A stretch of DNA of 64,000 bases from the NCBI GenBank assembly GCA_905178155.1, contig CAJINV010000002.1, positions 9,063,412 through 9,127,411 of the forward strand, written 5' to 3'. Shown one piece after another: positions 31,067 to 60,900 of the stretch. Numbering within the stretch: position 1 is the first letter of the stretch; each line of letters starts with the position of its first letter. Source of the stretch: Amoebophrya sp. A120. Its lineage: Eukaryota; Protista; Dinoflagellata. The notes beneath the pieces were generated by a model that saw only the letters and a list, made by a program, of their open reading frames with translations, did no database searches and had not been told where the DNA came from. Made by a program: the position numbers and the translations under genes.

Positions 31067-32052
31067 ATGTTGATTCATACATACATAGGATGGGGATAGA
31101 AGGACAAGTTTCTTTTTGAACACGTTCACAAGAAAGCATCGAGATTACTGGAAAATATGGTGTCATGATATCGGGTAAACGCAAGATTATAATTGCATGG
31201 ACTAATTCAACCATAATCTCCCGAAACGCAACGCCGCTTAAAGATCATCTTCTTTTGGTTGCTCTAGAAAATTAGAATACGTGTCTGCATGTTCATGTTT
31301 AAGTTTATCCGCTGCTGCTTCTGAAGAGTAAGTCCAAACATGGTGCACTACTGTCGAACGGATTTATTGTGTGTAGGTTCAATCCGTGCGTCAATCAATT
31401 CGTAAAGCCTACTCTGACGTGTGAAGTGTCGTGTCATGAGCTTGCATCGGATAGATTTCTGTACCTGTATCGCACTCGTGATGTAGTCATTGAAGCTTTT
31501 CATAATCGCTCTACTGCTGAATCGCGAAGAACACAAGTGGATGTCGAGATTGTTTTTTGCCACTGTTCGTCTTTTGCTTCTACCTATCCGGAGAATCACC
31601 GAGGTAGAGAGGTGGAGAAGAACAATTTCGTTGAAATAATTCTGCGGCCTGAGATCCATGTTGTTTTCGGGCAGAATGAATGTGACATGCAAGGACGAGG
31701 AAACTTTTTTTGGTTGTTGCAAGTAGTATGAATCTTGTTGTGAGAAACCGGATGACACGAGAGGAGTTAGTCCAGACACTATCTCTTGAGCTTCGCTAGA
31801 AGTTACTTTTGATGCCAAGATGAAACAGGTCCCTGTTGCTGCTCTTGGTAATGATTTGAGACCACTTCTGGATACTGAACGACCCGAAATTTTTTTCGCT
31901 ACCCCATCCTTTACTTTAGATATACATAGGTTCGGGCGTTTGCTCGATAGAGGAGGCATCTTGCACGAGCTGTGTTGTCTTGTGCTTTTGTACTGCAGTA
32001 ATTTGCAATTTTCGTGATAACGCGAAGGCGCGAAAATGAACGCGGCGGCACG

Positions 32053-33179
32053 ATGACTACCACCTCCGCCACGGATATGGACGCGGAAGAAAGTCGGTAC
32101 CGCGCCCATGGCGCGCTGATGCTTACCGCGTGGGGCGCGCTGGCGCCGCTGCTGATCTGCATGGTGTTTTTGCGGCGGAAGATCCTCCTGGAAACGGGCG
32201 GGACGACGCCGGGCGAGGGACCAGAAAAAGAGAAGCAGAAAGAATTCGTGAACAAGTTGATGCTGATGCACAAGCTCGGGCAACCCGTCACCCTCATTCT
32301 CGTCACCGTGGCCATCACGTTGCCCTTCATGGAGAGCCACGCGGCGCACGGACACCTGTTGCGCCGACTCGCTGGCGGCGGCGGCCATTCCTCCATGTCG
32401 CTGCACGGCGTGATCGGCTTCCTCGTGCTGTCCCTCGCCTGGGTCCAGCTGTTTCTCTGGCTCGGCAAGAAGTTTTACCTCAAGCAGCCAATTTTCGCTA
32501 ACGGTGGGGAGCAGCTGGAGAACTTTGCGGGGGTGGTGAACGGAAATTCGAAAGTCGCTTCGAGTTTGGGAGAACAAATACCAGGAGGCGAAAGTACAAC
32601 GGCGAAGGAAGATCTGGAGAAGAATTTGCCATCAGGAACAGCCACCGGTGCGGCGGTAAGCGCAGCGACCAGCGCCGCGGAAAAGCAGTTTTCGGAAAAT
32701 TGGCTCTGGGTGCACCGCGTCAGCGGGTTGCTCTGCCTGCTGCTAGCCTGGTGGAACTTGTGGAGCGGGTCGCACAAAATCAAGGACATGTTCGACGTTG
32801 AGATCTTATTCCACAGAACAGCACTTCAGTACTACACCCATACCAGAAAAACATATGAATTCGTGTCGCGGCTTGTACTGTGATTTCTGCTGTTCGGCAT
32901 GACTGGTACTTTTCTAATCGCTTCGCAGCACCAGCATTCTTACAGAGGTTAATAGGGGATGCTGCGTCACAGGAATGTGCTTCTGTTGTGGTCTCCTTGT
33001 TGCAGAACTTCTCCTGGCGCCGCCACAACACAAATCGACAAACCGGCTGAAAAAGGGTCCTGGTATGGGCGTGCTTTTCTGTAGAATACATCTTTACCCC
33101 GTTGGTCATCGCCTTCATCGCCGTTTCCGTCATCATGCTGGTCTTGTCACGGACAGTCTTGCACAAACTCGTCGTGTGA
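32053..33179 (+). CDS. Cytochrome b561-type protein, tandem paralog of 29294-31066 without the temptin domain
   Basis: RYRAHGALMLTAW, MHKLGQ, SLHGVIG and WLWVHRVSG. The C-terminus EIFTPLVIAFIAVSVIMLVLSRTVLHKLVV* is restored after removing 32807-33093. Confidence 0.8.
32807..33088. mobile_element. TIR introner of a further family (282 bp)
   Basis: TIR tattccacagaacagcac / gtgcttttctgtagaata; DR gatct/catct. Absent from the upstream paralog. Confidence 0.82.
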
Positions 33180-34445: not shown

Positions 34446-36111
34446 ATGGACCAAAAAAGCCCTCGGTCCACCAAAATCATGATAAGCCACAGGAGCAGCA
34501 ACAGCTATGAACCGACGGCGGGAAGTTTGGGTCCCAAGCCTCTGTACAATTACAACTCGCAGCCGCTTTTTGCTCGCGACGCCGAGCGCAGATCACAACA
34601 TACAGATCGCGACGGAGATCATTTTTCGTCTCATGCACGTCCACATCATGGACATGGAGGACCACAGTTTGCAGCGGCCTCCGACCAAGTTACAATGGCC
34701 ACCACTGCGGCCAGCGATGGATATGGCACCACTAATTCCCATCTACCCTCTAGCGGGCCGGCCTCGTCTGGTCCAACCTCCACAGCGTCGTCAAAAAAGA
34801 CACGACCTGCGCAGGTTTCCTTTCTGAGCACCACCGCTCAACAGCATCCAGGAGGAACCCATGACGCAGCTGCTTCATTTTCTTCGCGGTGCAACGCGGC
34901 GTCTGTTAGAAGCATGACGATGAATTATGACCATGGGGATCGCTCAAGAGCGTACAGGTCCACACAGGATGATCACTCACTGCCCTTGGGACGAATTGGA
35001 AAGAGTTCTGGGCCAATAAATCAAGAAGTAATGATCCACCAGCACCGCCTTCCACACGAAGACCGCGACTCTTTTGGGCCGGACGAAGAAGAGGAATTGG
35101 ACGATCCGTTCTTGCAAAAGGAGCAGAATCTGCAAGACTTGAAACTAGATTTGCAATCGCTGTTCCGCGTGTCGAAACAGCAGAACGAGGCTCAGAAAAT
35201 CAGCATCCAGGGACTTCAGGTGGAGTTGAATCACGCGAACAACTTGAAAATGCAGTTGGAGCAGGACAACGAGAAGCTGAAGAAGGGCAACGATCTGCTG
35301 ATCCAACGGTGTAACGCCCTCGTGTCGGAGATGGCGACGTTGAAAATATCAAATGTAAAAATGTCTGGGTCTGGAAGATTCTGAGACTTGTCATGCACGT
35401 TTTGCATGGGCCATGATATCTGTGATGCATGCCCTAGCATCACAGACTTTTTGAGGGCTCTGTGATGCCTATTCCGCATGGCAAATGCCCTCTCCGCGTA
35501 GCCAAAATTGCATTCCCTTTGCTGCTTATGCAATACAGATTTTTTTGGAATCCAAATGCAGCATCACAAGTTCGGATTCTTCCAGACCCAGACATTTTTA
35601 CATTTGATAGAAAACCAACGTGAGCAAAACAAAACAGGAGCGCGACAAGCTGGAGATATCAAATGTAAAAATGTCTGGGTCTGGAAGAATGCGCGATTTG
35701 TCATGCAGCTTTTCCATGACCCATGAGGTCTGGAATGCAGGACCTAGCATGACAGATTCTGTGCGATCTCTCTCATGCCTCTCCTGCATGAGAAACTCCC
35801 TTCCGACTTGGTCAAAACTGGACGACTTTTGGTAATCATGCAACACAGATTTTTGCATGTTTCAGATCTAGCATGACAAGTTACATTCTTCCAGACCCAG
35901 ACATTTTTACATTTGATAGGAGAAGCTCTTTTTCGATTTGAAGCAGAAGAGCGAGGAAAAGAAGCACTTCCTGAAAAAGGGGCTGGAAGAAATGAAGCAA
36001 AAACTGACGATCGAACGAAGAAGAAACAAACACCTCGCGTCCGCGTTGCGGTCCCTACAGCGCGACTTTTTCGTTGAAAAAATGCGCCGAAATTTGGCAG
36101 AAGAAAGTTGA
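34446..36111 (+). CDS. Protein with a disordered N-terminus and C-terminal coiled coil
   Basis: ORF 34299..35384 joins across two family A elements: EMATLKTNVSKTKQERDKLEKLFFDLKQKSEEKK... Confidence 0.65.
35347..35609. mobile_element. Introner family A copy 4 (263 bp; reverse orientation relative to copy 1)
   Basis: Family A TIRs; DR gaaaa. The interior is a diverged reverse complement of 13331-13592. Confidence 0.92.
35657..35918. mobile_element. Introner family A copy 5 (262 bp)
   Basis: Family A TIRs; DR ggaga. Confidence 0.92.
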
Positions 36112-36915
36112 AGAGGGACTCGTTTCTGTTTCATGTGTTGCAAACTCGATAAGCACTGTTTCACTTCTGAATTTGCAAATAAGAACGAAGTAATTACATA
36201 GATCACTTTTGTTTTTGTTGTACGCGAACACGTTTCAAGTTTAGGAGCAGGCGGTGGAAGAGAAATTGACTCTCAACTACATGAGGAAAGCGAAAGCTAT
36301 GCGTAATCGAATATTCGATGTGTTCTTCGAACTATACAAGCAAGAGGATCGTAAAAAAAAGGACGGCTCTTGTGCATCGGTTTGCTGTTATTTTTTTTTC
36401 CTTCTCTTGCTGCATGACAAGAAGACCAAGAGGAAGAGGCTCAAGTTCAACTCCAGAGGGTCTTCGAATCGCATGGCATGCAGGAAAAATGTGCAACATA
36501 CGAGCGAAAAATTGATTTCCCGGACGAGAGACGAGGCCACGATAGTAAATAACTCATCTGGGCCCGGTTTTTTTTTGCCGAGGTGCTTTTACGGTCCCGC
36601 TGAAAAAATCAATACAGAGGATTGAATATCATGTGCACTGCTCAAGTTCATTCTCAAGACCGCTATCTTCAACAAACAGGTTCGCGGTAGGTGTAGTAAG
36701 CATAGATTGATAGTATTTCGCTCCCCTGCTCCCCAAGGACTTTGGTCTCGTGAGGGTACAACGGACACGGAACCTACTGTAGGCCTCCAAACTATTGTGA
36801 CTGTTGATTCCGATGCCGCTTGAACATTTAAAAGTTGCTCGTTTGATTGACGCGTGAGAACTACCCTGTTTGTTCTTGTTTATCTGCTTCTCCTCCTCGC
36901 AAGAATTCCATAACC

Positions 36916-38344
36916 ATGTCGGCGACCAGTATGGTTCTCTCGTCCACGACCCCTTCCCTCTCGTCCGCCGCGTCGCGGATGGTCGGTCTCGTGAGTAGCG
37001 CTGGGTGCAGAGCCGAGGCCCGGCACTTCTCCGCAGCTGGAAGACGGCACGGGAATAGGTCGTCTCCCCTCTACGTAAATTCCCCAGCGGATAGCTCTAC
37101 CACGACAACGACCCGGTTAGTTCTCGGCGGAGTCGGGGCTTCTACAAGTTCCGTCGCGTATCCCCACCCAGGTCGTGGAACCAGTTTTCCTTCCTCGTCC
37201 TCCACTGCACCATATCTTTCAACCTATAGCAGCAACACACCCTCGTCCTCCTCCACCAGAAGTTCGCCTTTCCACCACACCTCTCAGCGTCGCTGCATCG
37301 CGGTGATTGCTGAGCCTACCCCGAACCCCGAGTCCATCATGTTTTACCCGCAAGCGCAGGACGTGCTGGGCAAAGCCGCGAAGACAAAGACCTTTCAAGA
37401 CAAGGCCACTGCCCGCTCGAGCCTGTTGGCCACCGCGCTCTTCAAGGTGCACGGTGTCGCGCAGGTCATGCTTGCAGCGAGACACGTGACGATTACGAAA
37501 CAGCCAGATATCGACTGGGATTTCGTCCGCCCCAATATCGAGCTGGTACTCTCTAGAATGTTTCCATGCGGCCGAATAAGTTGAATTTCTAGCTATAGCA
37601 AGGTTTGGTCCTATCTTCGACCCAAGAAGGGTCTGACTAAAGTCGCGTCTGGCGACTTTATTCAGAACTCGAACAGAAAAGACAGAAATGTAAAAACTTC
37701 TTCTCTGCATTTGGAGGTTTTGCTTTTGGACAGTGAAAACCAATCAACAGGTGATGTCTCAATTTTTCGCTGCTGGCCTCGAGGTAATCGATCCTCAAGA
37801 AATCGATTACTACCAAGATGGGCAATCGCGCATGCCGAACCCCGTTGCGGATGGCGTAGATGTTCCAGAAAAGGTACTAAGCATCATTTACAGCCTGGGT
37901 TTATTGCTTGGGCGCGGCATCAAATGATTGCTTTCGAATTCGATTCATTATCTTAGCATATTCGCGTAGTGCTGGGCCACTTGCACGGAAGATGCTTCGT
38001 CCTAGTTTCATGTAGTTAGGTCATTTGAAAAGTAGTCACCTATTTTTACAACCACAAAACCCCAGCCCGACGGCAGTTCGGAGAACTTTGAGCAGGAGCT
38101 TTTGCAGCTGCTGGAGGAGCGGGTGCAGCCGTTCGTGCAGCAGGACGGGGGCGACGTGGAATACGTCAAAACGGAGAACGACGTCGTCTACCTGCGGATG
38201 ATGGGTGCGTGTTCCGGCTGCCCGAAGAGCGGCATTACGCTCAACATCCAAATCAAGCAGCTGATCCAGCACTATTTTCCCCATATCCAGGATGTCGCCG
38301 AGTACGTGGACCCGGAGGAAGAAGTGATCCCGAGGGGGCACTAG
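36916..38344 (+). CDS. NFU1: Mitochondrial Fe-S cluster scaffold NFU1
   Basis: S/R-rich presequence, Nfu_N domain (PTPNPESIMFYP...SLLATALFKVHGVAQVML) and NifU-C domain (QLLEERVQPFVQQDGGDVEY...MGACSGCPKS). GT-AG introns. Confidence 0.92.
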
Positions 38345-40867: not shown

Positions 40868-42704
40868 GCTGTTGCACCACCGCTGTGCGCCGGGAGATTG
40901 TAAGCTTGCAAAATGAATACGAATAGGAATATGAAATAAGTTTCAAAAAGAGAAGCTGCGGAATGGTTTGAATAGAGTCGTCGTTGTTTCAAGAAACAGA
41001 AACAAAAGCGCAGCATTTTTGAGTAGGTTCAGCTTAGATATAACAGTTTCAGTAGTTTCAGCAGTATCACTCTTTCTGGGACAGGCTACAAGGAAGTGTT
41101 GTACAAAATGGGCTTCTACTGCAGCCTCCATTGCTGTTTAGTCGATCCTTCTTCCCGGTGTTGGCCATGGTTCCTGCTTGTAGCCGCGCTACTGCGGACG
41201 TTGTTTCGAAGCGATGCTGTCTATCGTGTGACCACTTTTTTCCTGAACTGACGAAGATTCCTCATGTGGAACAACGCGTAAGTAGTGGCTTATTATTTGT
41301 GATTGTAAGTACAAGTGCACATGCGCGGTGAATTTTATCGCGCTGATGTCCACTGCATGTTGCTTCTAGTTCTAGTGTTTCTGCGACAAGAAGACTTTTT
41401 ACTTTTTCACTCGTGTTCCCGACGCAGATAGAGACAAAAAGTGAAAATCAAAAGACGCTCATGAACGCGTACGGAGCGATGCTGCACTCGATCAACCAAA
41501 CAGCCTAACGAGATAAAGAAAGTTCCACAATACAGCCTAACGAGGTCCGGGATCAGGATCAGACCACGATCAGAAATCACGCATTTGGGCGTCCAGTCAA
41601 GGCATTCGGCTTTTCAGTGAGCAATAAATCGCATTTTCAAGTACATGTTGATCCGTCGTCATATTAATTCGGGTCTTCTTCTTGTCAGTGGCAGAAGAAA
41701 AGAACGTAGCCCATAAATAAGATCATCGGTCGTGATCGGTCGTGATGTGCCTCATCGATATCGTTTTTACCTTTTTTTAAACTCGAGGCTGCAGCGCCAA
41801 GCATGATCGCCAGCGAAGATCAAAAAATGGACTGACGTGACAAGTCTGGACTTGGATCAGCATCAATGGTCGACCAAATCACGTCGACCACGCTCCTCGG
41901 TGTGTTGATGATCAACATAGAAGAAGTACTTTGCTAGAAGATCGCTTGCCCGTGAAGACGACGGTGGCTACTGGAATTCAAAGAAGGAGCAAAGCATCGT
42001 TGCCATTCATATCGTCGCAATCCTCCCCGCAGATTATTTCAGGTTTTTGAAATCGTACAACTACAATTATCGGGCGAAGTCCAAAGTATTTTCTCAAGCC
42101 TCGGTGAAAATCAGTATTCGAACAAGCAGCTAGCTTTCTTTTACTTCTTACTTCTTGTCAGAGACGCCTCAAATCGGTTCGAAATGACGTTGATCGGAAT
42201 CCTAATCCCCTAAAGACTACGAAGGCAAAGCCAATACGTTCGGAATCAAATGAGCGGAAATAGCTCGGTCTACACGTTCAGAATGACCATCCTGAGGGAC
42301 TTGACTCGGAGCAAGATCGCGCAGTAAACCTAGAGCACTGACATACGTACTAACCTGCGGGCTTACCACTTGACTCAGAGCCCGATAGGCTCACATCAAG
42401 AACCAATCTGCAACAACCTTGAATGCTTATCCTCACCCACAGGATAACTAGCGATAGCCATCATCATCCTCCGCGTCTAACCTCGAGCCCCCTTGGGTCT
42501 AGCTTGTGTTTATAGGCTACGCCGCGAGCAGGAGCACTTCTAAACAAAGTTATTTTTATTTTTCTCCAAATCCGAAGTACAAAACGCGACTCAAATTTGA
42601 GTCCTCAAGTCAGTCTCTGTAGGATTTTGCTTGAAGTAATCTATCTTGCCAACTCGGGAAGGAGTTTTTTCGTTTTCTCATATTTATTCAAATAACCCCA
42701 AAAA

Positions 42705-45700
42705 ATGCCTACATTGACAAACGGAAGATCCGTGATGGATAGGATGATGTGTCGCATGCCCAATTGCAGCAGCATGCTGCGTCGTCTTCCAGTCACGCTG
42801 CTTTGTTGTTTCTCCCTTCTGCAGAGCCAGTTAGACGCGGTGGGGGCGGTGCAGCTCCAGCTCGGCGCGACGGGAACGAGTGCAGCCGCAGCTTCCTCGT
42901 CTTCCCCGCTGCTGACCGGCCGCGTGCCAAAGCTCGCCAAGGAGATCTTCACACTGCTCCAGCAGGACGAATGGACGATGACGTCGGTGACAGGGTCCCA
43001 CCACAAGTTTCTGAAGGGGAGTTGGAGCCTGATTGTGGCCGTGCACGGCGCGGGCGAAGTGAGCCCGCTGCTGCGGCAGCTTATCCAGCAGCAGCTAATT
43101 TTGGCGGACAACTACAACTACGATTGGGGCGCTTACCTGAAAGCGCGCCAGAGTGGAAACGTGTACATGCGCACAACACGAGGCCGGACCAGCGCTGCTA
43201 CCGGTACTTCTCTCCCCGCGGGAGCTTCCACCGGCGTTCCGTCCGCGCCGGCGGCGCGAGGGGGTCAACCTGTCATGGAGCAGGGCGGTCAATTGCTGTT
43301 GCCCCACTCCGCCGGCGAACGTGCGTCTGCGCAAGAAAGCGCCCGTGAGCGGCAGGAGAGGAGGCAGGCTGTGTTGCAAGAGCAGTTGGATTTCGCGTGG
43401 TATCTCCTCTCGCAACAAGAGTACCGGCTCGCGAACTACTTGCTGGTCACGTACCTGCAAAAGCCAGACTCCTCCAATATCAACTGCAAATATGTCTGCT
43501 GTGTCCGGCAATGAGAATTTGTATACGCTATGCGGTACAAAATAAATGTATGACCGGGCAGCCGTGGTCTTGCGAGCCTGTGAGTCAAGGCCGACCGCTG
43601 GTCGGTCGATATTTTATGGGCGTGGCCAACGCGTCCATTCTATTACGGTATCCAAAGCCTGAGAAGCTTGACATGAAGATAATCGGGGGGCGCCATTTCG
43701 CGCTTTTCTCCCCTGTTTTGTCTGTGTCTCGCTGGGTTTTCAGGGTCTTGCGCCCCTGCCGATGGTAGCTGTGAGTTATTCTGAGTCTTATGAGTTTTCT
43801 GAGTCCCCGGTGAGACAGGCCGACACGAGGTCGGCCTGGTTGGGTTGCGATTTTCCTATCCTAGTGAGACAGGCTGGCACGAGGTCCGCCTGGCTAGGTT
43901 TTGCGCGCGATTTCCCGGTGAGACAGGCGGGCGAGAGGTCCGTCTGGCCGGAAGCTTTATTTCTTTTCCCTAGCGATGAGCGCTAGTAAGTCGGGTGATA
44001 TTCCCCTGTTGCGGTATCTCGTTATATTTCCCACCTTGATTTTTCGGCGGCGGAGTGGAGTTTTCTGGCTACGCTGGTCGCGGTTTCTCCATCTCGGACT
44101 TTCTCGGCCTTGTGGCACTGGCGGTTTGAACCCGTTAAACCTAAAGGAGGGAGGGGGCGAGATGGAAGGGCTGGGCATCTTCGGGCGGCTTATTGGGGAG
44201 ATTTTTCGTTGGCCGCTCTTTGGCTTTGTTGTCGGTGTCCAGCGCCATGGGCCGAGATCTTTCTGTGATGGAGGAACCACGATCAGCGTGGGCAAATTCC
44301 CTCTCGCTCTCTTGATCTTCGACGCCATGAGAATGTGGCAAGCTCTGAGAGAATTTTCGCTCTGATCTTGGAAATCCGCGCTCTTTATTCCGATGTCTTA
44401 TCCTTGACGAAAATCTCCGATCCTCACCACGGGTTCTTGCAAGTTCCTACCAATGTTTCTGGTACGAGGGCCGGATCAAAATGATTTCGCTTGGTCGAGG
44501 AATAGTAGGATGCTTTACGCCTGGGGGATCCCTCGCTGTCGCTTTCCGTTTTCCATTCTTCCAGGGACACATAGGGCCGTCTGTGGTCTTTGTATATATT
44601 GAGCTTCTTCGATAGCATTTTTCTATCTGCTTGCTACCTTTCTTTCCAAAATGTATGGCCGGCGAGGAAGAGATTATTGAGCAGCCGGCTGCCCAGGTGG
44701 GGCAGGGTGGGAACCAGGGCGCTGCTCTTTTGGCTAGCTTTGGGGACCTCCTGCAGAAGACGATCAAGACTGCTGCAGACGAGGAGCAAGTCGTCGAGGC
44801 AGTTGTGAAGCAGAAGGGTCTCGCGTCGCTGGTAGTGGCGACAGTGGTTGTCTTTGCGAAGTATATGCGGGTGCTGAAGAATCGCGAGGCTGAGACCCTC
44901 ACCTTCAAAAGCTTGAGAGAAGTTGTGCAGTTTGCTGCCGCGTGCTTAGTCGTGTCCGGGAAGCAGGTTGAGCATGCCAACCGCTGGGGCCTCAATCTTT
45001 TCGTGAAGTACTGCGCGGACCCGTTTGCGGTTTCGGATATCAATGAGATTTTTGGGGACATGAAGGACCTGATGGGTGAAGATGAGTATGAAGATGTTGC
45101 CCCTGCGCAGGTTGGGGAGGCGCAAAACGCCCCCAAGCTGGAAACTTTGCCGGAGTATGCCTACAAGGTGTGGACCTTTATGAACTCGCTGCTTTTTGTC
45201 CAGTTGGATGCGGTTCGCCGCGCCCGCGCGGCGGGCAAGAAGAACAAGGGCGGCGAAGATGATGGGCCCGCAGCGAAGCGTGCCCGCGGGTCGGGCTCCC
45301 CTGGGGTCTGCGCGAAGTTTTTGAAGGACGGGCATTGTAAGTTCGGCAGCGGTTGCCGTTTCAGCCACGACGCCCCGGAGTCCGAAGATTTTACTCGCCA
45401 AACCGTCGAGCGCATGGGATGGACGGGGTTCGATGTGGCGGAGTCTTGGAAAATCCACGAAGCAAAGGCCAAGAAGTGAGCGGGCCGGCTTTGGCTCAGT
45501 TTTTCCCGTTCCGCTGTCGGGGTGGTCTTGTCTTCTTCTGGGCGCCTGTCTGGGGGTCTTCGGTTTGCTTTGTGCCTTGAGCTTAGATCGTATTTTACTT
45601 CTATGTGGACCATGAGTAGCTCTAGAATTGCAATGCGTGTTTTTGCTATCGAAGTCGCGATGTAGGTATTTTTCTCCGGGGGTCTCTTGACTGCCCGGCC

Positions 45701-47572
45701 ATCCAGTGCGGTCTGCTTTTATGACCGGAAGTGTTCTGAACCAACATCGGTCGTGCTTTCTTTCTCTTGGTGCTTCATTTTATGCCCCTCTTCTCGTCGG
45801 TGTCGCCACTCCGCTCTCGCTTTGGGGCGCTGGTGGTTCCCCAAATTCATCTCCAGTACTGCGTCTGTAGGGTTCTTCGGGGTTGCTTCGGTGCGTTGCG
45901 TCTCCGCCGGTGGGGGTTGGCTCTCCATGCGTTAGCGGGCGCCTTTACCTCCTGTTCTCCGGAGGAGAAATCTCCAATGACGATCATCCCATAGGGTGAT
46001 CCGTCCGTGCAGTTTGGGAATGTGCATAAAATGTATGACCGGGCAGCCGTGGTCTTGCGAGCCTGTGAGTCAAGGCCGACCGCTGGTCGGTCGATATTTT
46101 ATGGGCGTGGCCAACGCGTCCATTCTATTACGGTATCCAAAGCCTGAGAAGCTTGACATGAAGATAATCGGGGGGCGCCATTTCGCGCTTTTCCCACCCA
46201 CCCGCCCCGGGGCACTTTTTCTTTTTTGCAACGGAAGGATCGCGAGGTCTCGCGCCACTCTGACTCTGATTTCAGGGTGTGACAGAGACCCACACTACGT
46301 CTTCTGGATCGGGGGGTTGGCTCTCCATGCGTTAGCGGGCGCCTTTACCTCCTGTTCTCCGGAGGAGAAATCTCCAATGACGATCATCCCATAGGGTGAT
46401 CCGTCCGTGCAGTTTGGGAATGTGCATAAAATTGCAATAATGTTCCACAACCAACATGCATGAGAAAAAATTACTATTTGAGCGGTTACGTTTGTGGCAT
46501 GCCGAGTTGCAAACTGCGCCGTTGCAACATGACGAGCTTGAACGCGGCCTTTTCGTGGCCACGCACGACATTTTTGCAATGCATATCCAAGGCAAGGAAG
46601 CAAAACGCGTTTCTGGAACCTGTGCCAAAGCTGCTGGAAGTCAAACAGCCACGGCCCCAAGAACAAGGTAAACTTTTGTTCGCTTATGTTGCGGTGCTAG
46701 CCGCAGAGGTTCGACGGACCGAGGAAGCGGTCGACGCCGAGGACTCCGGCGCGGCTGAATGGCGGAACCCGCTCCGCCAATTGCACCTCCCACTGCTGAG
46801 CGACGCGCAGCTGGCGGTGAAGGATTCGTACCTCATCGAGTCTCTGCGAGGCCAGGTTTTGCTGTACGGCTATTGGATCCTGAATCCCCTGCAGTTTGCA
46901 GAGGAATATGACCGGAAAGAAGACGGATCCTATGGTCGGAAAGAAGACGGGTCCTATTCTTGTTCCTTTCGCGCGAAAGTGGCGGAAACCACGCAGACAG
47001 ACATGGAGGAACGCCTGCATTTCCTGTGGACCGAGATGCAAGAAATTGCTAACGCTCCCACGACGGCACCGGTTCCTGGTCGGCAGTTGCAGGTCGGCCC
47101 CCCATCTGCCCTCACGTCTGCAGCAGCCGCACCCTCGGGAAAGAAAGGACGCAGAAGTCGGTCCGGCAGCTCACGAAGGTCGTTGGCCTCCAGGAGTAGT
47201 ACCTCCCCGGATGGAAAGCTGATAGCAGATCACGCGACGATTTCCGGGGTTGCTGCTGGCTTTCAGGGAGGCTCTGCTCGGAGCCAATCATCGGGCAGTG
47301 ACGTCAGCGAAGGAGCGCGTAGTGGGAAGACCACAAGTGGTAGACGGAGTAGCTCAAGGAGGAGTAGGTCAAGTGGTAGGAGTAGGAGTAGCTCAAGTAG
47401 GCGTCGCTCAAGAAGGAGGAGCAGCTCTCTACCTTCGCGACTTCCCAGCCAGAAGATGACGAGAGGCGAAGGAAAGAGAGGCCGTGACAGCCTAGGCCGA
47501 CATCACGATTCAGCGGAACAGAGCAATATCGCACAGAGCCACACCGAATCCCTGTTCCCTTGCTTTGTATAG
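42705..47572 (+). CDS. Predicted secreted protein with an N-terminal HicA-like toxin domain and an RS-rich basic C-terminus (exons 42705-43477, 46591-47572; ~584 aa)
   Basis: Signal-like segment MLRRLPVTLLCCFSLLQSQLDAVGA-VQLQ. HicA-like KLAKEIFTLLQQDEWTMTSVTGSHHKFLKGSWSLIVAVHGAGEVSPLLRQLIQQQL at 42930-43097. In-frame junction KPDSSKARKQNAF. Confidence 0.72.
43806..43951 (+). repeat. Three 54-nt-period hairpin repeats
   Basis: Invariant gtgagacaggc at 43810, 43864 and 43918, each followed by a 9-bp stem-loop. Confidence 0.85.
44655..45479 (+). CDS. Putative gag-like ORF with a CCCH zinc finger (274 aa) inside the SDR element
   Basis: Intronless ORF. CAKFLKDGHCKFGSGCRFSH = C-x8-C-x5-C-x3-H, preceded by the basic motif PAAKRARG. 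Confidence 0.7.
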   Translation: MAGEEEIIEQPAAQVGQGGNQGAALLASFGDLLQKTIKTAADEEQVVEAVVKQKGLASLVVATVVVFAKYMRVLKNREAETLTFKSLREVVQFAAACLVVSGKQVEHANRWGLNLFVKYCADPFAVSDINEIFGDMKDLMGEDEYEDVAPAQVGEAQNAPKLETLPEYAYKVWTFMNSLLFVQLDAVRRARAAGKKNKGGEDDGPAAKRARGSGSPGVCAKFLKDGHCKFGSGCRFSHDAPESEDFTRQTVERMGWTGFDVAESWKIHEAKAKK

Positions 47573-49070
47573 CTACTTGTGTGCCCAACGCAAAACGAAC
47601 ACGCACACGAACCGATTTGATTACCAACGCGGTCATCTTGTTAGTTGTAATGTTCTGTGGTCGCATCGAAGAAGATGCTGCCCTTTTTTGTATTTTGTTG
47701 TGCTGGTTCTTAGGTTTTCGTTTTTAATTTTATTCCTTCATCTATCACCATCAGGAGAAGAACAAGTAGGAGTGTTGGCGCATTTTGGCGGAATGCAATT
47801 GCAAGCTCGCAGGGATATGGAAGGTTTTCCCCCGGATTAGTGTCCGACAAGGTGTTGAGAGCATTGGGTTGGAGGATGGAGAAGCGGTCTCTGTCTTGGA
47901 TATCAAACTGAAAAGCATTGTCCCGTCGTCGGAACAGACTAGGCGAGAGACAAGATGTAGCACGTGGCTGCTAGTATTATCTCCAGTGGAAAGATTCACA
48001 ATGTTGCACATGTTGGCCATGCGAATTTTCCGAGGCGATTCGTATATAATTTTTCTGTATTGTAACGCCACCAACGATAGTTGGTCAGTTGTACCTGTGA
48101 TCATGTAAAGGCTGCAGTCTCCTGTCCCTACATTCTAGAGCAAAAAAGCAACAGTTTTTCCATGTGTGTCTGTTGTATGTAGTGAGGTCACCGAACGGTT
48201 CTAACCAGGGAGTTTTTTTGACATATACCCTGAAAAACGACCGGCAGTTTTCAAGCGGTCGGAAGCGTTTTTTGACATAAAAAATTTTCAATTATCAAGC
48301 AGGCGGGGCTTTGCCATCAAACAAGCCCGGTCGAAAACTATCGATTCGCACTTGATAAAACGACGCAGGGGAGCCGGCAAAAGGGGCGCCCTTCTGAGGC
48401 GCCCAGCGCACCTATTTCCGCCGCTTTGGGGCTCCCAAAAAGGGGCGCGCAAAAAACGCGCCCAAAATCAGAACAGCGAAACAGCATGGCACGGCCGCGG
48501 TTTCGGAGCATTTTGGGCGGCCGCGAAAGCGGCCGCCTTTTCGCCGGTTTCAGAGCCTGGAGAGCTTTGCAAAAAGCGCCGGCGTGAAAAATAAAAACGC
48601 GAAAAAGAAAAAGCGCCCCAGACGCGCAAAGCCAATCCGCATGCTATGGGCCCGATTTTTCTTCGCTTTTTGGGCGCCCCCCGTGGCACCCGGATCGGCT
48701 CCATAGCATGGGGGCTGGCTTTCGGAAAGGAATTCCGGAGATTTGCCAAAATTTGCGATGTTTATCGAGCGGCCGCCATACCGTGCGGCCTATCGTTATT
48801 CACGGCGGTATGGCGAGCCCAGAAAAAGCAAAGCCGCGGCCAAGGCGACGGCCGGCAAGAAAACGCCCACGACCTCACTACCCCCGCCCCGGCGGCTATA
48901 TTTGGTAGTGTAAAAAAAGTGCTCCTTTCCATCTGCAAGGGTCATGTTGCGTGGACCTTCACTAAGCAGCCCTGATTTTGGTAGCGCGGTCTAGTGTCCT
49001 CTTTGATTAGTTGAGGCTTCAGTCACTGCAAATATCATGTATTGCGTGTGATAAAATAATTTAGAAGTTC

Positions 49071-52000
49071 ATGGCCTGCGCCTCAAGGTCTGGGGGTGGG
49101 CGTGGGGCACTTTTTGATTTGATATTCGAACCAGAAGAGAAGAAATTCTTGTTGGCAAGCAGCTTACGAACCAGCGAACTAGCAAGGAAGTGGTTTGGTC
49201 GACTGGTCGAGTTTCTGTCGGTGCTCGAAACAAAACGCGCTGGAGAGTCGGAGGAAGACGCTAAGAACCGTCAACGAGCGAGCGTCCTGAAGAAAGTGGT
49301 CGCCTTGTTTCCTCCAGGTGTCCAGGGCTGGGTAGAGCAAAATTCTGAAGAGAAGGACGACTGCGGGAAATCGTTCCGGTCCACCCCCAATTTCGAGGTG
49401 TTACTGGGCGTGTTGAGTAGGAGCCTTTGGCAGGACGTCGAGAGTTGTAGTCTTGAAAGGATACTGCAGCTGGTCAAGATTCTCACCGCAGTTTGGCTTT
49501 CGACGGAGGATGGACAGAACGTGATGGCGGCTTTCGAGCAGAGCTTGCAGGCCTTGCTGGCACAGCTCGCAAAGAGGCACGTCGAAGCGTCAAAAGGATC
49601 CATGTCCCTTCTAGGAGCTCCTCTTACCGATGCAAGAAGTGCTGGCGCAGTGGCGCCAGGACCGGGCCGAGCCGCAGGTACTTCATACATAGAACTGCCA
49701 CAACTACAAACGAACCATTGATAGTGATCACTCCTGTGTCGCACCAGCAACTGGCATCTCGTGAAATTGGTTTCGCAACTATCACTTTAGTGAAAAGTCC
49801 TACAACTTAATAAGTATATCTTGTTCTGAACTCACTTACATCTTGATCTTACAGAAATATACACCTGCTCCTGTTTCCGGGTGGTGAATCGATGGTGAGG
49901 CCTTGCTTGGCATTGCGCACTGGACTACTGAAATGTTGCATCCCATTAGCTAAGAGGGCTTAGACTCGAGAAATATTTTGTAGTGGCGGACGCGGATAAA
50001 ACCTCGGCCATAAGTGTAAAAAAAATCGAGGACATAGGCACAAGAAGATCGTTGTGTCAACAAAGGCAACGAATTTCGCTACAGGTCCTGCCAGCGACGG
50101 CGACGTACTACCAGGGCTAGTGCTCTATCGCAAATCGCGCATTCGCAACGTGCTCGAATACTCCCTGCTCTCGGCACTGCGGGCTTCGTTGGGGATGCTG
50201 GTTCTCGCTACATTTTCGGTTGAAAGTATGACAGGTTTTGACAAGCTCTTCGACACCCGGCGTGCAGTCGAGTCGGTTTTCTCTCAGCGCCTTAAGTTTT
50301 TGATCGAGTTGTGTGCGCCGGGCGCCGGCGTGGGTTCTTCCGAACAGAAGGGTGCAGGAGCAGCCGCAGGGGTGAAGATCAGCTCCGTGATCAAAGCCAG
50401 TGCTCTGTTGCCGAGGGATTGGCTAAAAGAGACAGGGTTTCTGCACAGCGTCCCGCATTATGAGTGGCAGGCCGCTTTCGCCAACAGTGTTGCGGATTAC
50501 TTACAGCAAGTTCCGGGTGCATTCGCGCTACGGAAAAAGCACTGGGACGCCGTGCTTCGGCCAGCCTTCGACAAAATTGCGCTGTACAAGCAATTTCAGC
50601 AGTACGTCCTGCAAAGTGAGCCGCTGGCTGGATTGCTGCCAGCATGGAGGGCGGGCGTGTTGGGGGAGCAGAATAAGCAAGCGTGGAGCAGGCGCATGGA
50701 TCCAGCACTCGCGTCAGTGTTCTCCGGCAACCGACCTGGTTCCTTCTTCCTAACTTTCGGAGACAAGTTGGAGTCGTTCTACGAGCTCGAGAAGAAACTC
50801 GTCATGCACAAAGGGGATCAATTGGATTCTATTGAGAGGAAAAATCCCCCCTCCCCATATTGAAAAGGTATGTTTCCAAAAATTTGTGTTGCGGATTTGA
50901 GGTCGCAAATCACATCTGTCTTGCAAGAAGACAAGGGGAGAAGCTTCCGCCCCGTTATGGAAGCGATTTGTCATGCTGTTGGGCCTAAAGGAAAGCCGTT
51001 TGCCATGCTGAACTACTAGACCCATACGCCCCAGCCCCAGCCTGGGGATCTGGCCGCAGTGCCTCTCTGCAGTACAAAGATGATTTGTGGCCACAAATCA
51101 GCATCACAAATTTCCGTTTTGATATGGGGAGGGGGGATTTTTCATTTTGATAGATTCGGAAGAAGTTTCCCCCGAAGACCTCAAGAAGGCTTGGACGGAG
51201 GGTGGGACAGGGATGCACCCTGCTCTTACCTTCGTTGTGAAGTCGGCGTTTCCCAACAAAAGCATGCCCGGCGACGACAGCACGCTGCTCTATCCGCAAG
51301 TTTTACGGACAAACCGACGGTTTGGTGGACTGATTCTTGGGCCCGTCATGCGGAACCTCGTGGGGTTCGAGACGGAGAACCTGGCTGCGTGCGGGGAAAG
51401 GTGTATATCGGATCTATTTATCAAGTGTAAACTAGTTGTAGCACGCGTCAGTCTGAAGAAGGTCCACAGGAAAATAGCAATAGTCGGTAGCTCTGAGCAC
51501 CACATGACAGTCTTTCTTCATTTATGATTTTTGATTAAGACAGAAATTCAAATCCCACTAGCTTCAAGAAGCGGGGTTGGAGGAAAATGAGCATCTTTCT
51601 TGCGCCAAGTTGTTTGTCCCGCTATGAATCGCGAGGCGAAGATCGAAAAAACTCCTTCGATCACGACCGGAATGAAAACTCCGAGTTTTCATTCCGGTCG
51701 TGATTGATGGAGGATTTTTTGTTGAAGAAACTAGAGTAACAGAAACAGTGATGAATTTTTCATTTTTTTCCTGTGGATGATCTTTCTGATCGCGATTTGC
51801 AATGCATACGCCACTTCGTGCAGCTATTTCTACATAACATGGTCAGTCTGTACGCTGGTGGCAGAGACGTTTGGAACCACGACGGCGGAGTGTCTGCCGA
51901 TAAGCGCGAGATCCTGCTCAACCCTGCAATGACCATGTTGTTTTCCTACGGAGGTAGTTTTTCGATGCGCAACGGTGAGCTACGACTTAACAAATTGACC

Positions 52001-54993
52001 GAATGGCGTCGCAAACCAGAGTTTCAAGGGCGACCTGTCGATCCACTTTCTTGGCAGCAGGAATATGAAGCCCGCACTGCCAATCCGGACCGGGAATTAC
52101 TAGGAAACCTGCTTTCAGTCCACGTGCTGGCGAATCTAGAAGCGGGGCTGCTGTATGACGAGTTCTACAGCAAGCTTCTGCTGACCACCATGCCGGTGCG
52201 CCGAGGGTCGAGGGACATAAGCTTTGGTTCGCTTCTATCAAATGCAAAAATGTCTGGGTCCTCTGGAAGGTTGAAACTTGTGATGCGCATTTCAGAACAC
52301 AGAAAAATCTCTCATGCATAGGCAGCAAAAGTTGCCCATTTTCTGTCACCAAAGTCAGAGATTTGTCATGCGGATTCTGCATTGCGAACGCTTCTCGAGA
52401 CCTGTGATGCTAGAGCTTCCATGCCAGACCTTCTGTGTCATGCAAAAGCAGCATGATTCTTCCAGACCCAGACATTTTTGCATTTGATAGCTTCCCCTGT
52501 GGCAGGGGTCCATGATCGGAGGATCGTTGGACAAGCCTGCGGGACGGGAAGCTTGGCTTGAGGTCACAATGTTCAAATTTGTGCTGCACCAGTTCGAAGC
52601 CGCTTTCTGGGCGCGGAAGTTGCTGTATCCAGTGCAGGAGAGCAAAGTAGAGACGGAACTCCTGCGTAGAAGCGGCCTCGCGGCAGTGCTCGCGAGCGTC
52701 GTGCAACTGCGGCAAGCGCTCCTGGTCGCGCCGATCTTTGTTGGCAATAGCGCGAATGGCCTCGCGGGTCTGACGGAGTGGAATTTTGCCTACATGCAGC
52801 AGGCTTACGTCGAAATGCGGTTCTCGCCAGTGCAAGCAAACTTGCTTCTGTCCGACCCTCAGGCACGGGAGGTGCTTGCGGACCTGCGCGCTTCTGTTTT
52901 TTTGCTCCTGCTGCTACAAAATTTTCAGGAGCAAGCTCAGCTTTCGAACTCGGAAGTCGAGCGAATGAAGCGGAAATTCAACGAAGAGGAAACGATGCAA
53001 AGGCCGCATGATAGGGCGAAACTCCTAAGCGGTGCAGAAGCCCGGGACATGATGGAGGGGAGCGCGCGGAGTTGGCAATCAGTTTCTGTTTGGATCGACT
53101 CGAAGCCGTGGACGATGTTCAAGACGGTGCTAAAAAAGCTCCATTGTGAGAAAGTGCTGCAGATTCTGGCGAGGATTGTGGAGCGTATGACGACGCTACT
53201 AGTACCGGAAGACCTGCACAAGGGTGGGAGCGGGGTAGTCGGCGTAGAACAAGATCCACAAAGGAGTAGTCGCCTGTTGAGTTCCAACATAACGCCGCTG
53301 CAGCTGCGGGGCGCTGTCGAGGCGATGTTGCGCGAGCCTTGGCATGAAGATGACTTCGACTCGACCAAGTTCGTGCTTGAAGAACTGAGGACCCTTGCGG
53401 ACTTCTTCGTGGAAAACACGGAGGACAAAAAAGGGGTGCGCTTTAAGCACCAGAATACCTCGAAGGGCGGATTCGAGCTGCTCAAAAGTTTCTGGATCCG
53501 CGGTCCGGGGCCACAAGGTTTGGAGAGTCTGGGCAATACACTGTCCGCCTGGCTGTTTCCGTACAAAATGGCGTTCACTACTGCTTTGGCGGACGTCGAC
53601 AGGAAGCCTGCGTCTCCACGAGCTCGTGCAGGTGCTTTGCCTGTGGGTCACGTCGGGGTGACTCCTGGTAGTACAATTGGAGAGGTCGTCTTTGCGCGGG
53701 AACAGCAACAGACGCAGCTTGTGCGCGATGCACTGCAACCTGGCGCCGAACAAACTGGTCTTGGACACACACTGCTCGACTGGCTGTATGGCCCCGAGCT
53801 GGACAACGTTCTTGCGATTCTCACGGCGGAGGCGAAGGCCGCAATGAAGTCGGTGCCCCGCGAGGAGCAGCGAGGCATGCTGGCGCGGATGACGGACTTT
53901 ACAGCGCGCGTGAAGGCCAAGCAAGCCGCTCCCCCGGAACAAGCGTTGGAAATGCCCGCAGCAGTGATTCTGTTTCTGAATGTGGTCACCCGCGTCAGGG
54001 CTTCGAAGGCGGCCCCCGGCAAAGCAAGCAACGAACGAACGAAGAGAGCGTATAATTTTGTCACCAGCGATCCAGAATGCGGGAAGCTGCTAGAAGAAAT
54101 CACACAAAGGCTGCTGCCGAGGTTGACAACTGCTGCTGACGGGCTTCTGGGTCATTTATTCAGGGGGCAAGCTCCACTACCCCCGCGGGAATACAACGCG
54201 GCTGAACTACTGGGCGCGGCCGGCGCTTCCGCTGGCGTTGACACCCGAGAACAAACTCGCCACCAGTCCGATCTTTTTGTCAAGCACGAGGCGCAACTCT
54301 ACGACATTGCGAAGGACGCAAGCGATCTGCGTAAACACGTACTCAAGCTGCTGTTGCACTTCGATGCGAATGTGATGGCCACGTATGTGAATCCGGGGAA
54401 GATGAAGGGGAAGGCCAACGCCCACCACATTGAACGACTTTGGCCTGACATTTGCGAAAAGCAGACCATCGGGGACAAGAACATAAACTGGGAGAACATA
54501 GTATCCAGCAGACATGAATAAACAGCCCCCGATCATCTTCTCTAGCCCTTTGAGCTACTCGATCTTGTGACGTGCATTTACTTATTGAAGATCACCAGCG
54601 CGGCATGAATAGGAACTGGCGCCGTCGACTCGTCCCTTTGTCATGCTATGCAAGATGATGTTAGTTGGTTTTGGTTACGGTTGCACGAGATTGACGGCAA
54701 AGCGGATGGTTCATTATCACTTGCATATTGAAGAGTGTATTTGACGCAGAAGATCGGTGCTGTTATTCGTGTTTTTTCTTTCATCCGCTCCAGTGAAGAC
54801 TCTTTCGGCCGAGGACGTGGAGGGGCACAACTTTCCCTACGCCGGCTACGGAGAAGTGGTCCCTGCTCTCGAGAAAACCGTTCTTCCGTGGCTGAAGGCG
54901 GGCTTTCCGAAAGCATTCGAGGAGAGCAAAAAAGCGCTCGAGGAAGCTCGCGTGATGCCGGGGTCAGCGGCGTCGAGTGCGCCGGTCAAGTAG
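49071..54993 (+). CDS. Large multi-exon helical protein of unknown function
   Basis: ORFs 49071, 50054, 51147, 51773, 52512 and 54757. In-frame joins across the elements at 50830 (QLDSEEVSP) and 52236 (SLPLWQGSMIG). No family recognised. Confidence 0.65.
50830..51152. mobile_element. Introner family C copy 2 (323 bp)
   Basis: Colinear and similar to 29557-29878; DR gattc. Confidence 0.9.
51660..51704. repeat. Perfect 22-bp-arm palindrome (intronic)
   Basis: atcacgaccggaatgaaaactc-c-gagttttcattccggtcgtgat. Confidence 0.9.
52236..52489. mobile_element. Introner family A copy 6 (254 bp; reverse orientation relative to copy 2)
   Basis: Family A TIRs; DR gcttc. The interior is a diverged reverse complement of 14565-14815. 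Confidence 0.92.
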
Positions 54994-57971: not shown

Positions 57972-60900
57972 GTGCTATACTTCTGCCCGTTCCTCACGCC
58001 GGAAGTAGAGCGAAAATACACACAGCCCTTCGTCATGGCGACCGCGACACTGCAGGAGGCCGTGCAGCAAGCCGCGGAGGAAGCAGCTTCCAACACGGAC
58101 AATTCAGAGGAGGAAAGTTCTTCGTCATCTTCCTCTAGAAAGGATGAAATTGAAAACGAGAGGGAGGAATCCCGAAAACCACCGGCTGACGAAGTGGATG
58201 AGGAAGCGAGGGAAGCTAGGAAATCGAAAGACCCCCCTGCTCTTGACGCCCCCACAGCAAAAACGAAATTTCTTCTCATGCTGGATTAGCAGTTGTGTAC
58301 TCATTAGTATTACACTAATTGAATTTATTTCCATCGTTGATCTTGTATTGAGGGACTGAATTCAGATCCAAATGCTCTGGGCGGGGATCATGTTCAGGCG
58401 TCTGCCATTTGGCAGGACAGACGCCGTCACTTGAGGCCCAAGCCTACAACGTTCGAAATAATCACCCGGGTGATTATACGGCGGAGACCTCTCTGCGATT
58501 GTCCCTTAGCAAGACAGGGGCGACGGATGAGAACAGCCAAGGAGTTAAGAACGCACAGTCGGTCAGTGTAAGGAAGAGGGGGGCTGTCTTTTTCCCACGA
58601 TAGAGGCACGGCTGGTGGAGGAGGCCAACCGACAAGCCGAGCAGGCGCGACGGAACTCGCTGCAGCAGAAACAGCCGGAGAAGACTGTGGCGCGGGGGAA
58701 AGGGAGGTTTGGGAGTGGGAACTCGCCGGGCACAGCAAGTGGGCAGCTGGAGAAGACGTTCGGCAAAGCGCCGGTGAATGCCGCGAACACCGTGGTCAAG
58801 TCTTCGTCGCTGGAGTCCGGAACTTCGCTCGCCAGTGGCGGGCGGGGAAACATTCTTGCACGGTCCTCGATGGAGGACAACGTGCAGAACCACTACAAAA
58901 TCATGTTCTTTCTGCAGTCCTTCTCCATCTTCTACGCGGTCCCCACCCTGGTCTTTGTGCTCGTGCGAAATCTAGTGCACTGCGATCATGATTACGTGGA
59001 CGGCGCGGTACAAATACATAGAAGTGCTTTTACGCGGTTTTGTTTTCTGCAAAAAGAGAGAATTTTCGCGTAAAGTCGACTACAAAGTAGATTTAGGCTT
59101 GGAGCGCCGCTTCTTGATCTGCTAGTGTATTAATCTATGGATAATGTGTAGTGCGAAGCTCTTCGCGAACGGTATATTGCAGGCGTCTTAATAGCATTTT
59201 CTCTGGATGAGGATGTGAAATAGATAACTGTCCGCAAATGAGCAGAGCGTAAACCTGCGAGCGAGGAACACGAAAAATACCTCCCACATGAAACAATTAC
59301 ACCAGATTCCGAAGTTCTTCTGGCATGCCATCGTGGAATACGGTTTTTTCTGTATCCTGAGTAAAAACGTCCCCACCCCAGAGTTGTGATGCAGATCTGC
59401 AAGCACAAGAGCGTTTGTGATGCGCGATCCCATGAGGGGCATTATCAATCGTGTTTTGGAACTTGTAATGCTGTAAACAGCATAAGGAGATTGATTTGTT
59501 ATGCGGCTTCCCTTGCTAAACTGCACTACACTACAGCCTGCAATTTGTCATGCGTGACCCCCAAAAGTTCTAGGTTTGTGTTGCAAAATCCCCATCTTGT
59601 TTCTGGTGTGGGGATGTTTTTACTCAGGATATTCTGGTGGTACGCGCCGGTGATGGCGGTGCAGGGGTTGGTCATCGCGTTTTATCCCCCGGAGATGCTG
59701 ACCTCCAGGCAGTATCCTGAGTAAAAACGTCCCCACACCAGAGTTGTAATGCAGATTTGCAAAGACAGGAAGACTTGTAATGCGCATCCCCATGAGGGCC
59801 ATTTTCAATCGTGCTTTGGAATTTGTGATGCTGTGAACAGGATGAGCAGATGGATTTCTGATGCAGCTGTCCTTGCGAACCTGCACTACACTACGGACTG
59901 CAACTTGTGGTGCGTGACCCCCAAAAGTTCTAGGTTTGTGTTGCAAAATCCCCATCCTGACCCTGGTGTGGGGATGTTTTTACTCAGGATAGGCAGCAGC
60001 GCGTCATTATTGGGTCTACAGTGTTCCTAGTAATCGTCTTCGGCACCTACGCGGTGCTGCACCGAACGACCAACTCCGATCCGTCGAACAAGATCACGAT
60101 GGTACGTGTGCTGGCCGGGCTCGCCGTCGTTGTGGGCCAGTACCTCGGCATGTGGCACCAGTTGCGACGAACGCTCGCGCGCGAAAACGCCACCGAATAC
60201 ACCCCGCGACAAAAGAGCCTGCTGTGGTGGAGCTTGAAATTCGGATTAGTCTTCTTCGCCGGGTTTTACGGGGCCCTGATCTTCGCCGACCGGCTTTTTC
60301 CGACGGCGGTGCTCATCATGAGAGAAAAAACTGAGGGCAAGGGCACCGGGGGGTTGGTGATGCAAAGTACTGTTCTCTTCGGCGTGTAGGAATAGTTTTT
60401 CGTTCTTTATTAAAGAATTGTCTTTCTCAACACTCACGGTTTTTTTTTTGCGGTTCTTAGAATAAATGGCAACCAAGCTCACGGTCGTAGCAAGCAGTGT
60501 GGTTAAGTACCAATATCGTCCGCCGGGCGCGACATGCAAACATAGCATTTATTTTGCACAACTTACCACGCCACTCCAGGTGCCTTTGAGATGTTTCTCG
60601 CGACGTTCTTTTTTTCCCTCTTCCTCCCTTTCTGGAGCAAGCGTGTGAGTCGGGTTGCGTCGGACATCTTGTCCCTGTACCACGAGGGCGGGGAGCGCAA
60701 CACCGTGATATACGAGCGCATGCAGTTCACGATCAACTTTTTGCTGGACATCACCAGGTTTGTGTACGGGCGCGGCGTGCTCTTTTCCGTCTCCCGGATC
60801 GAGGTCTTTTTCCTGCTGATCACCAAAGACATCGTCTACCAGTTCTGGCACTTCGGATTCAAGTAATTACGCAACTTTGATATAATATGAATATCTTGTT

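Follow-up and report, generated by a model that had tools for sequence, protein, structure and literature searches.

HicA, the toxin of HicAB type II toxin-antitoxin systems, is treated as a bacterial and archaeal protein in the available parts of a survey giving 14 prokaryotic contexts (bioRxiv 10.1101/2023.12.08.570793) and of a review (PMC11594946). HicAB toxins are small operon proteins of 50-100 amino acids with an adjacent or fused HicB, and in fused classes 11-14 (HicAB, HicBA and SMC-HicA) the domain is part of a larger protein and a separate antitoxin gene is lacking. We found a HicA-like domain near the N-terminus of a 1,983-amino acid protein of Amoebophrya sp. A120 (Syndiniales), a eukaryotic intracellular parasite, the kind of source that an earlier reading of the DNA without database searches (the sequence-only reading) had supposed. 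The gene, GSA120T00010342001, lies on the + strand at 42705-54993 of a 64,000-nucleotide stretch of contig CAJINV010000002.1 (GenBank assembly GCA_905178155.1, positions 9,063,412 to 9,127,411). We call this stretch the window, and coordinates below are window positions. No title on a eukaryotic HicA was found in the literature searched, at title level and with few subscription journals covered, and neither GSA120T00010342001 nor 'HicA' was found in the supplementary files searched.

The A120 domain shares with HicA toxins (PF07927; structures 6G26, 4C26, 5YRZ, 4P78, 6HPB and 1WHZ) a ~57-residue alpha-beta-beta-beta-alpha domain, with G-S-H in the beta1-beta2 turn, a second His after beta3 and a core of Leu, Trp and Phe. 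In contrast to those toxins, it makes up residues 75-131 of a long protein encoded in nine exons, has V-A-V-H in place of V-P-x-H, appears to have lost the basic surface and is preceded by a possible signal peptide. It also lacks a HicB partner, adjacent or fused: none of 95 six-frame open reading frames (ORFs) of at least 85 amino acids between 38.5 and 58.5 kb, and no part of the 1,983-amino acid protein itself, matched a HicB family, in agreement with the sequence-only reading. The fused classes 11-14 are prokaryotic and have HicB or SMC as the partner (HicA is C-terminal in class 14), whereas the A120 HicA domain is N-terminal and the body of the protein matches no family. Two other proteins, P0003 and P0012/P0014, have the same layout, that is, an N-terminal V-A-V-H HicA domain, a linker and a long body. 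They differ from the A120 protein in having no signal peptide, in keeping the basic surface, and in bodies that are not detectably related to it; no description of either was found in the literature searched. HicA, introners, Ngaro-like elements and the gene itself, annotated but unnamed, were known already. The eukaryotic N-terminal-HicA layout was not found in the literature searched, nor in the available parts of two HicA surveys.

The HicA-like domain is real, and its match to HicA is beyond chance. The domain alone (residues 75-131; 42927-43097, +) matched Pfam family PF07927 over residues 79-129 and profile positions 2-55 of 58 with E=1.9e-5 and 25.1 bits, nearly full length but under the curated cut-off of 27 bits, so that the Pfam match expected from the sequence-only reading was borne out in extent and E-value and not in score. 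Within the whole protein the score was 18.2 bits, and this was the sole family match. There was a match to PHROG 353 (E=0.0026), and a search of PDB sequences at E<=10 returned just two entries, both HicA. A fold model from a nine-sequence alignment (mean predicted local distance difference test score, pLDDT, 66) has the predicted alpha-beta-beta-beta-alpha order, like that of a double-stranded RNA-binding domain (helix 8-17, strands 21-26, 29-34 and 37-42, helix 51-66). Its best four matches among 48,161 chains were HicA-family structures (Z/root-mean-square deviation/aligned residues of 7.5/3.7/64, 7.3/2.1/59, 6.8/2.0/56 and 6.6/2.4/58); the next row had a Z of 4.8. Foldseek ranked HicA entries first, none at E<=0.001, and an Atlas search gave HicA clusters for the domain at a score of 0.80, which is a lead only. 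The homology and the fold had both been read correctly from the DNA.

The catalytic residues have been kept. G97-S98-H99 is encoded at 42993-43001 and the second His, H114, lies within V-A-V-H; residues 76-131, at 42930-43097, read as had been claimed. In an alignment with Burkholderia HicA, Gly97 and His99 fall on Gly22 and His24, which are both described as required for toxicity, with G14C, S23A and P41A having no effect (PMC3969222). Because G14C and P41A are harmless there, the changes at the equivalent A120 positions E89 and A112 (aligned by eye) need not matter. The same catalytic His is listed for four other HicAs (PMC11594946). Despite fast divergence, the domain retains G97, S98, H99 and H114 as well as L85, W90 and F102 of the core, and among the three relatives Gly97 and His99 were kept along the longest branch (1.13, compared to 0.22 and 0.48). 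We consider the odds slightly in favor of a working active site.

We found that the gene is expressed and spliced as in the annotated nine-exon model. The ORF found first is 100% identical to one database protein (CAD7935555.1 / GSA120T00010342001), which maps back onto the window in nine exons. All eight introns are skipped by RNA-like contigs of run X4, and the sequence assembled across the eight observed joints (5,952 nt) translates exactly into the annotated protein. Each of runs X1-X3, which come from another sample within the same study, gave one contig (7,491-7,536 nt) with a 5' end between 42441 and 42476 that reached exon 4 and joined 43472 to 46586 and 47525 to 47843; the first joint was thus present in four runs from two samples. 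No matching run is recorded as RNA and the RNA nature of X1-X3 was guessed, yet the interior of intron 1 was mostly uncovered in these runs, in contrast to run X5, which covered 30 of 30 bins and had no 43472 to 46586 joint. This suggests that X1-X3 are RNA-like. Raw-read runs X7-X9 gave 88, 3 and 0 aligned reads, nearly all partial. The alignments of two RNA-like contigs open at a genomic AG, position 42441, preceded by two and four unaligned 5' letters; the AG at 42441-42442 is probably a spliced-leader acceptor. No ATG was found in the 5' untranslated region (42441-42704), which makes Met1, encoded at 42705, the first AUG.

Protein mapping and contig joints place coding exon 1 (residues 1-256, also supported by translation) at 42705-43472, exon 2 (residues 257-570) at 46586-47525, and exons 3-9 with introns 3-8 at 47843-54993 (exons 47843-47898, 49128-49674, 50082-50824, 51153-51417, 51813-52230, 52490-54500 and 54790-54993), all on the + strand. 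Intron 2, defined by contig joints, is 317 nt (47526-47842) and holds the stop codon at 47572. The sequence-only reading had ended a short gene at this stop, with a Ser/Arg-rich (RS) tail as its C-terminus. Neither part held up: the stop is spliced out, and ~1,440 residues follow the RS tract (47 would follow even without splicing). It had also suggested that the large first intron would hide the gene from predictors. However, the public A120 annotation already contains the gene with intron 1.

Two relatives share the N-terminal HicA. A similarity search over 1.84 billion representatives gave five matches at E<=0.001: the query protein, a repeat protein that matched spuriously, a Pyramimonas protein and two short bacterial-type HicAs. 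The Pyramimonas protein (P0003; EP00242_P017254, 179 amino acids, from the transcriptome of Pyramimonas sp. CCMP2087) is 53% identical and, at E=3.8e-6, outranks every bacterial HicA among these representatives (best 2.9e-4). A two-sequence profile recovered a metagenome protein from ENA (P0012/P0014, 600/935 amino acids, 39% identity). The HicA domains of both relatives score above the Pfam cut-off (51.7 and 38.6-39.3 bits), and V-A-V-H is confined to these two and A120 among 85 distinct domains. We built trees of 34 and 33 rows (64 columns) after dropping nine truncated rows and thinning the rest at 75% identity; the second tree additionally omitted one long branch, and the prokaryotic rows were gathered with patterns from the three domains. 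The three domains formed one side of a branch in both trees (support 95/94, and 91/86 with a mixture model), with A120 the longest end branch in the mixture-model tree (1.75). An approximately unbiased (AU) test did not reject placement of the A120 domain with bacterial P0004/P0005 (p=0.131). It is likely, from these comparisons, that the three domains are a small eukaryote-type HicA subfamily and that the A120 domain was inherited from it.

No similarity was detectable between the bodies of the A120 protein and its relatives. Exons 3-9 (~1,410 amino acids) matched no family in Pfam, NCBIfam or PADLOC, whole proteins matched nothing in NCBIfam or PADLOC, and Rfam gave one weak match, far under its cut-off. 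A single-sequence fold of exon 8 was all-helical and unusable (pLDDT 38). A likeness to tetratricopeptide repeats seen by eye between the A120 body and P0014 was discarded, because 225 of 300 and 58 of 60 shuffles did equally well. We also discarded P0002 (E=4.6e-9), a repeat protein with six summed stretches and no HicA match, and P0011, a coupling protein without relation to HicA that had been wrongly clustered with P0005. Among proteins of 1,090-3,471 amino acids (7,986 candidates scored), no full-length homologue was found except the protein itself, which is weak evidence, and no A25 or AT5 orthologue was seen. Scans of metagenome, viral and genome loci with the three-sequence alignment found no long HicA protein. 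The loci were short HicA genes (2 metagenome, 25 viral, and 80 kept of 116 genome), and three longer HicA reading frames look like read-through or frameshift. P0014 had no match among viral contigs, phages or plasmids. Its Atlas structure row was a phage cluster of 544-amino acid HicA-bearing proteins with a template modelling score of only 0.17-0.25, and Atlas gave nothing usable for its body.

Two features outside the HicA domain bear on where the protein might act. The first is a putative signal-peptide-like segment, M24-A48 (42774-42848, +), that was also noted in the sequence-only reading. It has a basic n-region, an uncharged h-region L28-L39 (11-residue hydropathy, KD11, of 2.19) and V46-x-A48, with a cut predicted between A48 and V49. 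A home-made rule accepts the A120 N-terminus and rejects both relatives and all 32 internal windows; of seven other N-termini in the window it accepts one. We consider a functional signal peptide slightly more probable than not. The second feature is the RS tract, recognized from translation and composition at residues 505-540 (47330-47437, +). Its 36 residues include 13 K/R, 17 S and no D/E, and it sits in a basic low-complexity stretch (residues 425-570) with 32 K/R, 8 D/E, 41 S, and KKGR and KRGR clusters. RS tracts are typical of nuclear RNA-processing proteins.

We propose, with a probability of roughly 0.35, that the expressed A120 protein is a His99-dependent ribonuclease (RNase), exported and active against host RNA either in the nucleus or inside food vacuoles. 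This figure and the weights given below to the two alternatives on function are judgements and were not computed; the proposal depends on a signal peptide and an active site that both function. In this scheme, the HicA domain would have come once from bacteria and then been fused to long bodies in eukaryotes. The A120 copy would carry an N-terminal signal peptide, absent from both relatives, and might thereby enter the secretory pathway. With its positive surface lost, the isolated HicA domain would bind RNA weakly, and the basic RS stretch 370 residues downstream could add affinity for RNA or hold the protein in the host nucleus. Weak intrinsic activity together with export might spare the parasite's own RNA without an antitoxin, and the target could be RNA of the host nucleus or nucleolus, or RNA taken up into food vacuoles. 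The sequence-only reading had secretion simply replacing the antitoxin. This idea is weakened by the two closest relatives, which share the N-terminal HicA without a signal peptide.

The proposal fits the biology described for the parasite. A120 grows inside the nucleus of its host, which it has digested within 24 h, and parasite RNases are invoked in that account (PMC7793755). Shrinkage of the host nucleolus is described at a stage when an intact membrane still surrounds the young trophont (PMC9478091). An exported HicA-type RNase fits both the shrinking nucleolus and the nuclear digestion. The authors who described the shrinking nucleolus could not identify any parasite nuclease (PMC9478091). 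It is possible, although we regard it as rather unlikely as a whole, that marine eukaryotes domesticated HicA as an undescribed family of long N-terminal-HicA proteins and that the A120 member, having gained a signal peptide and RS tract, is exported, degrades host nuclear and nucleolar RNA and is one of the parasite nucleases that were sought.

Several results weigh against an exported RNase. The evidence for a signal peptide is weak because the rule was ad hoc and its threshold was set after the sequence had been seen; 122 of 2000 shuffles also pass it, the h-region begins 27 residues from Met1, and three 11-residue windows elsewhere in the protein are more hydrophobic. P0003 and P0012/P0014 have neither a signal peptide nor a hydrophobic leader, so the subfamily can apparently exist without export. 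The fold match is partly circular, since the alignment behind the model (mean pLDDT 66, as above) contained HicA relatives, the Pfam score is below threshold, and 97% of the protein is left unexplained.

The surface of the domain also counts against the proposal. The HicA surface is described as highly positive (PMC3969222). The A120 domain has 4 K/R and a net charge of 0, by residue count and not from an electrostatic map, the lowest K/R count among 75 domains compared. In contrast, 72 prokaryotic HicA domains average 9.8 K/R (minimum 5) and a net charge of +5.3, with 6 of the 72 at or below 0; 10 of 85 rows were left out of this comparison as truncated or frameshifted. Both eukaryote-type relatives keep more (8 and 11 K/R). 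In addition, Ser replaces the Arg that precedes VTGSH in 71 of the 72, a set partly selected on the motif. The apparent loss of the basic surface argues against a full-strength bacterial-type toxin. P0014 and P0003, whose domains keep the basic surface, are likelier than the A120 protein to be an active HicA of the eukaryote type.

It is also possible, though doubtful, that the protein stays inside the parasite as a regulated RNase. The long body might hold HicA off until a trigger such as virus or stress, a mode of control already put forward for prokaryotic HicA fusions, or the RS tract might direct the protein to the parasite's own nuclear RNA-processing machinery, as expected from where such tracts are typically found. 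Pyramimonas is a free-living alga, and the closest relatives begin with HicA or a short leader that has no hydrophobic segment. Fused HicA classes, including SMC-HicA, are known and have been proposed to act in phage defence (bioRxiv 10.1101/2023.12.08.570793). Retention in the parasite is harder to reconcile with the 74-residue N-terminal extension with signal-peptide anatomy, which the relatives lack, and with a body in which no sensor, HicB or PADLOC family was matched.

A further explanation, which we consider unlikely, is that HicA has decayed here into a pseudo-enzyme, or serves as a weak RNA-binding module, on a large secreted or structural protein whose function would lie in the 1,800-residue body. 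The low K/R count, the sub-threshold Pfam score, the end branch of 1.75 and a body unlike those of the relatives all point this way. Against decay, G97-S98-H99, H114 and the three core residues remain in place in a domain diverging this fast. Lastly, independent acquisition of the A120 domain from a bacterium, with the subfamily reflecting convergence in a 60-residue domain or contaminant relatives, concerns origin only and is compatible with any of these functions; it is improbable given the better match to Pyramimonas than to any bacterium, the exclusive V-A-V-H and the shared branch side in both trees, even with the AU result, support that falls to 91/86, a P0012/P0014 taken from a metagenome and a P0003 that rests on one transcriptome.

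Intron 1 is 3,113 nt (43473-46585, +), as defined by contig joints and sequence comparison, and has a direct repeat, TCCAA, at its borders. The joint slides 5 nt on this repeat, and the 43477/46591 junction of the sequence-only reading is one register of it. None of the six possible registers is GT/GC..AG, and the intron is non-canonical as had been thought. Introners of A120 are described as having direct repeats of 3-5 nt and terminal inverted repeats that start with TAT and end in As, and 68% of the non-canonical introns are repeats of this design (PMC7789003). The outer 224 nt of intron 1 (43473-43543 and 46433-46585, +) have terminal inverted repeats that match at 12 of 14 positions and resemble those of intron 7. 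Over 21 nt, the left end of the intron has 90% identity with four other introner ends in the window, namely 13572-13592, 30177-30197 and the two ends of intron 7. Intron 1 thus shares with the described introners its non-canonical borders, direct repeat and terminal inverted repeats. Its outer shell is, by sequence comparison, an ordinary A120 introner, a diverged family member, and unlike typical introners it grew from about 224 to 3,113 nt by way of a nested element.

The nested element (43544-46432, +; 2,889 nt), identified by repeat comparison, has the order A1-[ORF]-B1-A2-B2. Repeat A1 (43544-43713, 170 nt) is 99% identical to A2 at 46029-46198, and B1 (45912-46032, 121 nt) is 100% identical to B2 at 46312-46432. 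An ORF in the gag position (44655-45479, +; 274 amino acids) encodes a CCCH finger (about 45306-45371). An A1-ORFs-B1A2B2 arrangement is the defining feature of Ngaro and VIPER-type retrotransposons (PMC8547959, PMC6681497). The element shares with the Ngaro, VIPER and PAT tyrosine-recombinase retrotransposons the split direct repeats and a zinc-finger ORF in the gag position. It differs from them in being just 2.9 kb; no reverse transcriptase, RNase H or tyrosine recombinase was matched in Pfam among its six-frame ORFs of at least 85 amino acids. Because no reverse transcriptase or recombinase was found, it is at most non-autonomous, and it is likely, from its layout, a non-autonomous Ngaro/VIPER/PAT-like retroelement. 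The nested ORF is uncovered in X1-X4, and this lack of cover proves nothing. A120 introners of many transposon origins have been described, with no mention of a nested Ngaro-like element in the available part of that account (PMC12130899). The 3.1-kb intron is incidental to the protein, an introner invaded by a retroelement. It indicates that non-canonical splicing in A120 stays precise even when the terminal inverted repeats are separated by a 2.9-kb element.

Other repeats were seen in and around the gene. Just inside repeat A1, a 37-nt unit with internal palindromes occurs three times at a spacing of 54 nt (43810-43954), and repeat A1 itself is matched by RNA-like contigs from a related element elsewhere. 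One introner family with long terminal inverted repeats occurs in both orientations (13331-13592, 14565-14816, 29936-30197, 35347-35610, 35657-35919 and 52236-52490), and its copy in intron 7 folds into a long hairpin (z=-6.8). A second family of ~280 nt with terminal inverted repeats is at 17855-18141, 23671-23955, 59352-59631, 59712-59991 and 61006-61284, with two copies in tandem. A third repeat forms a pair, 29557-29825 and 50830-51099, the latter in intron 5. Intron 3 (47899-49127, 1,229 nt) is also enlarged and contains repeated GC-rich sequence; an X4 contig skips 48402-48634 within it, suggesting another nested insert.

Across the window (1-64000), long protein-like ORFs are nearly all on the + strand, consistent with a published description of co-oriented gene blocks in Amoebophrya (PMC7789003). 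A NifU/NFU1-like gene at 36847-38344 (Pfam PF01106, E=1.2e-22) has a long Ser/Arg-rich leader that resembles a mitochondrial presequence. Tandem paralogous genes at 30095-31066 and 32002-32883 encode membrane proteins with His-rich helices, which look cytochrome-b561-like by eye.

Our results indicate that the HicA family extends to eukaryotes, through an expressed, intron-laden eukaryotic gene with a HicA domain and two similarly arranged relatives. The gene is also a concrete candidate for how Amoebophrya shuts down and digests the host nucleus. Syndiniales help end dinoflagellate blooms. Given this role, a first molecular effector would matter.

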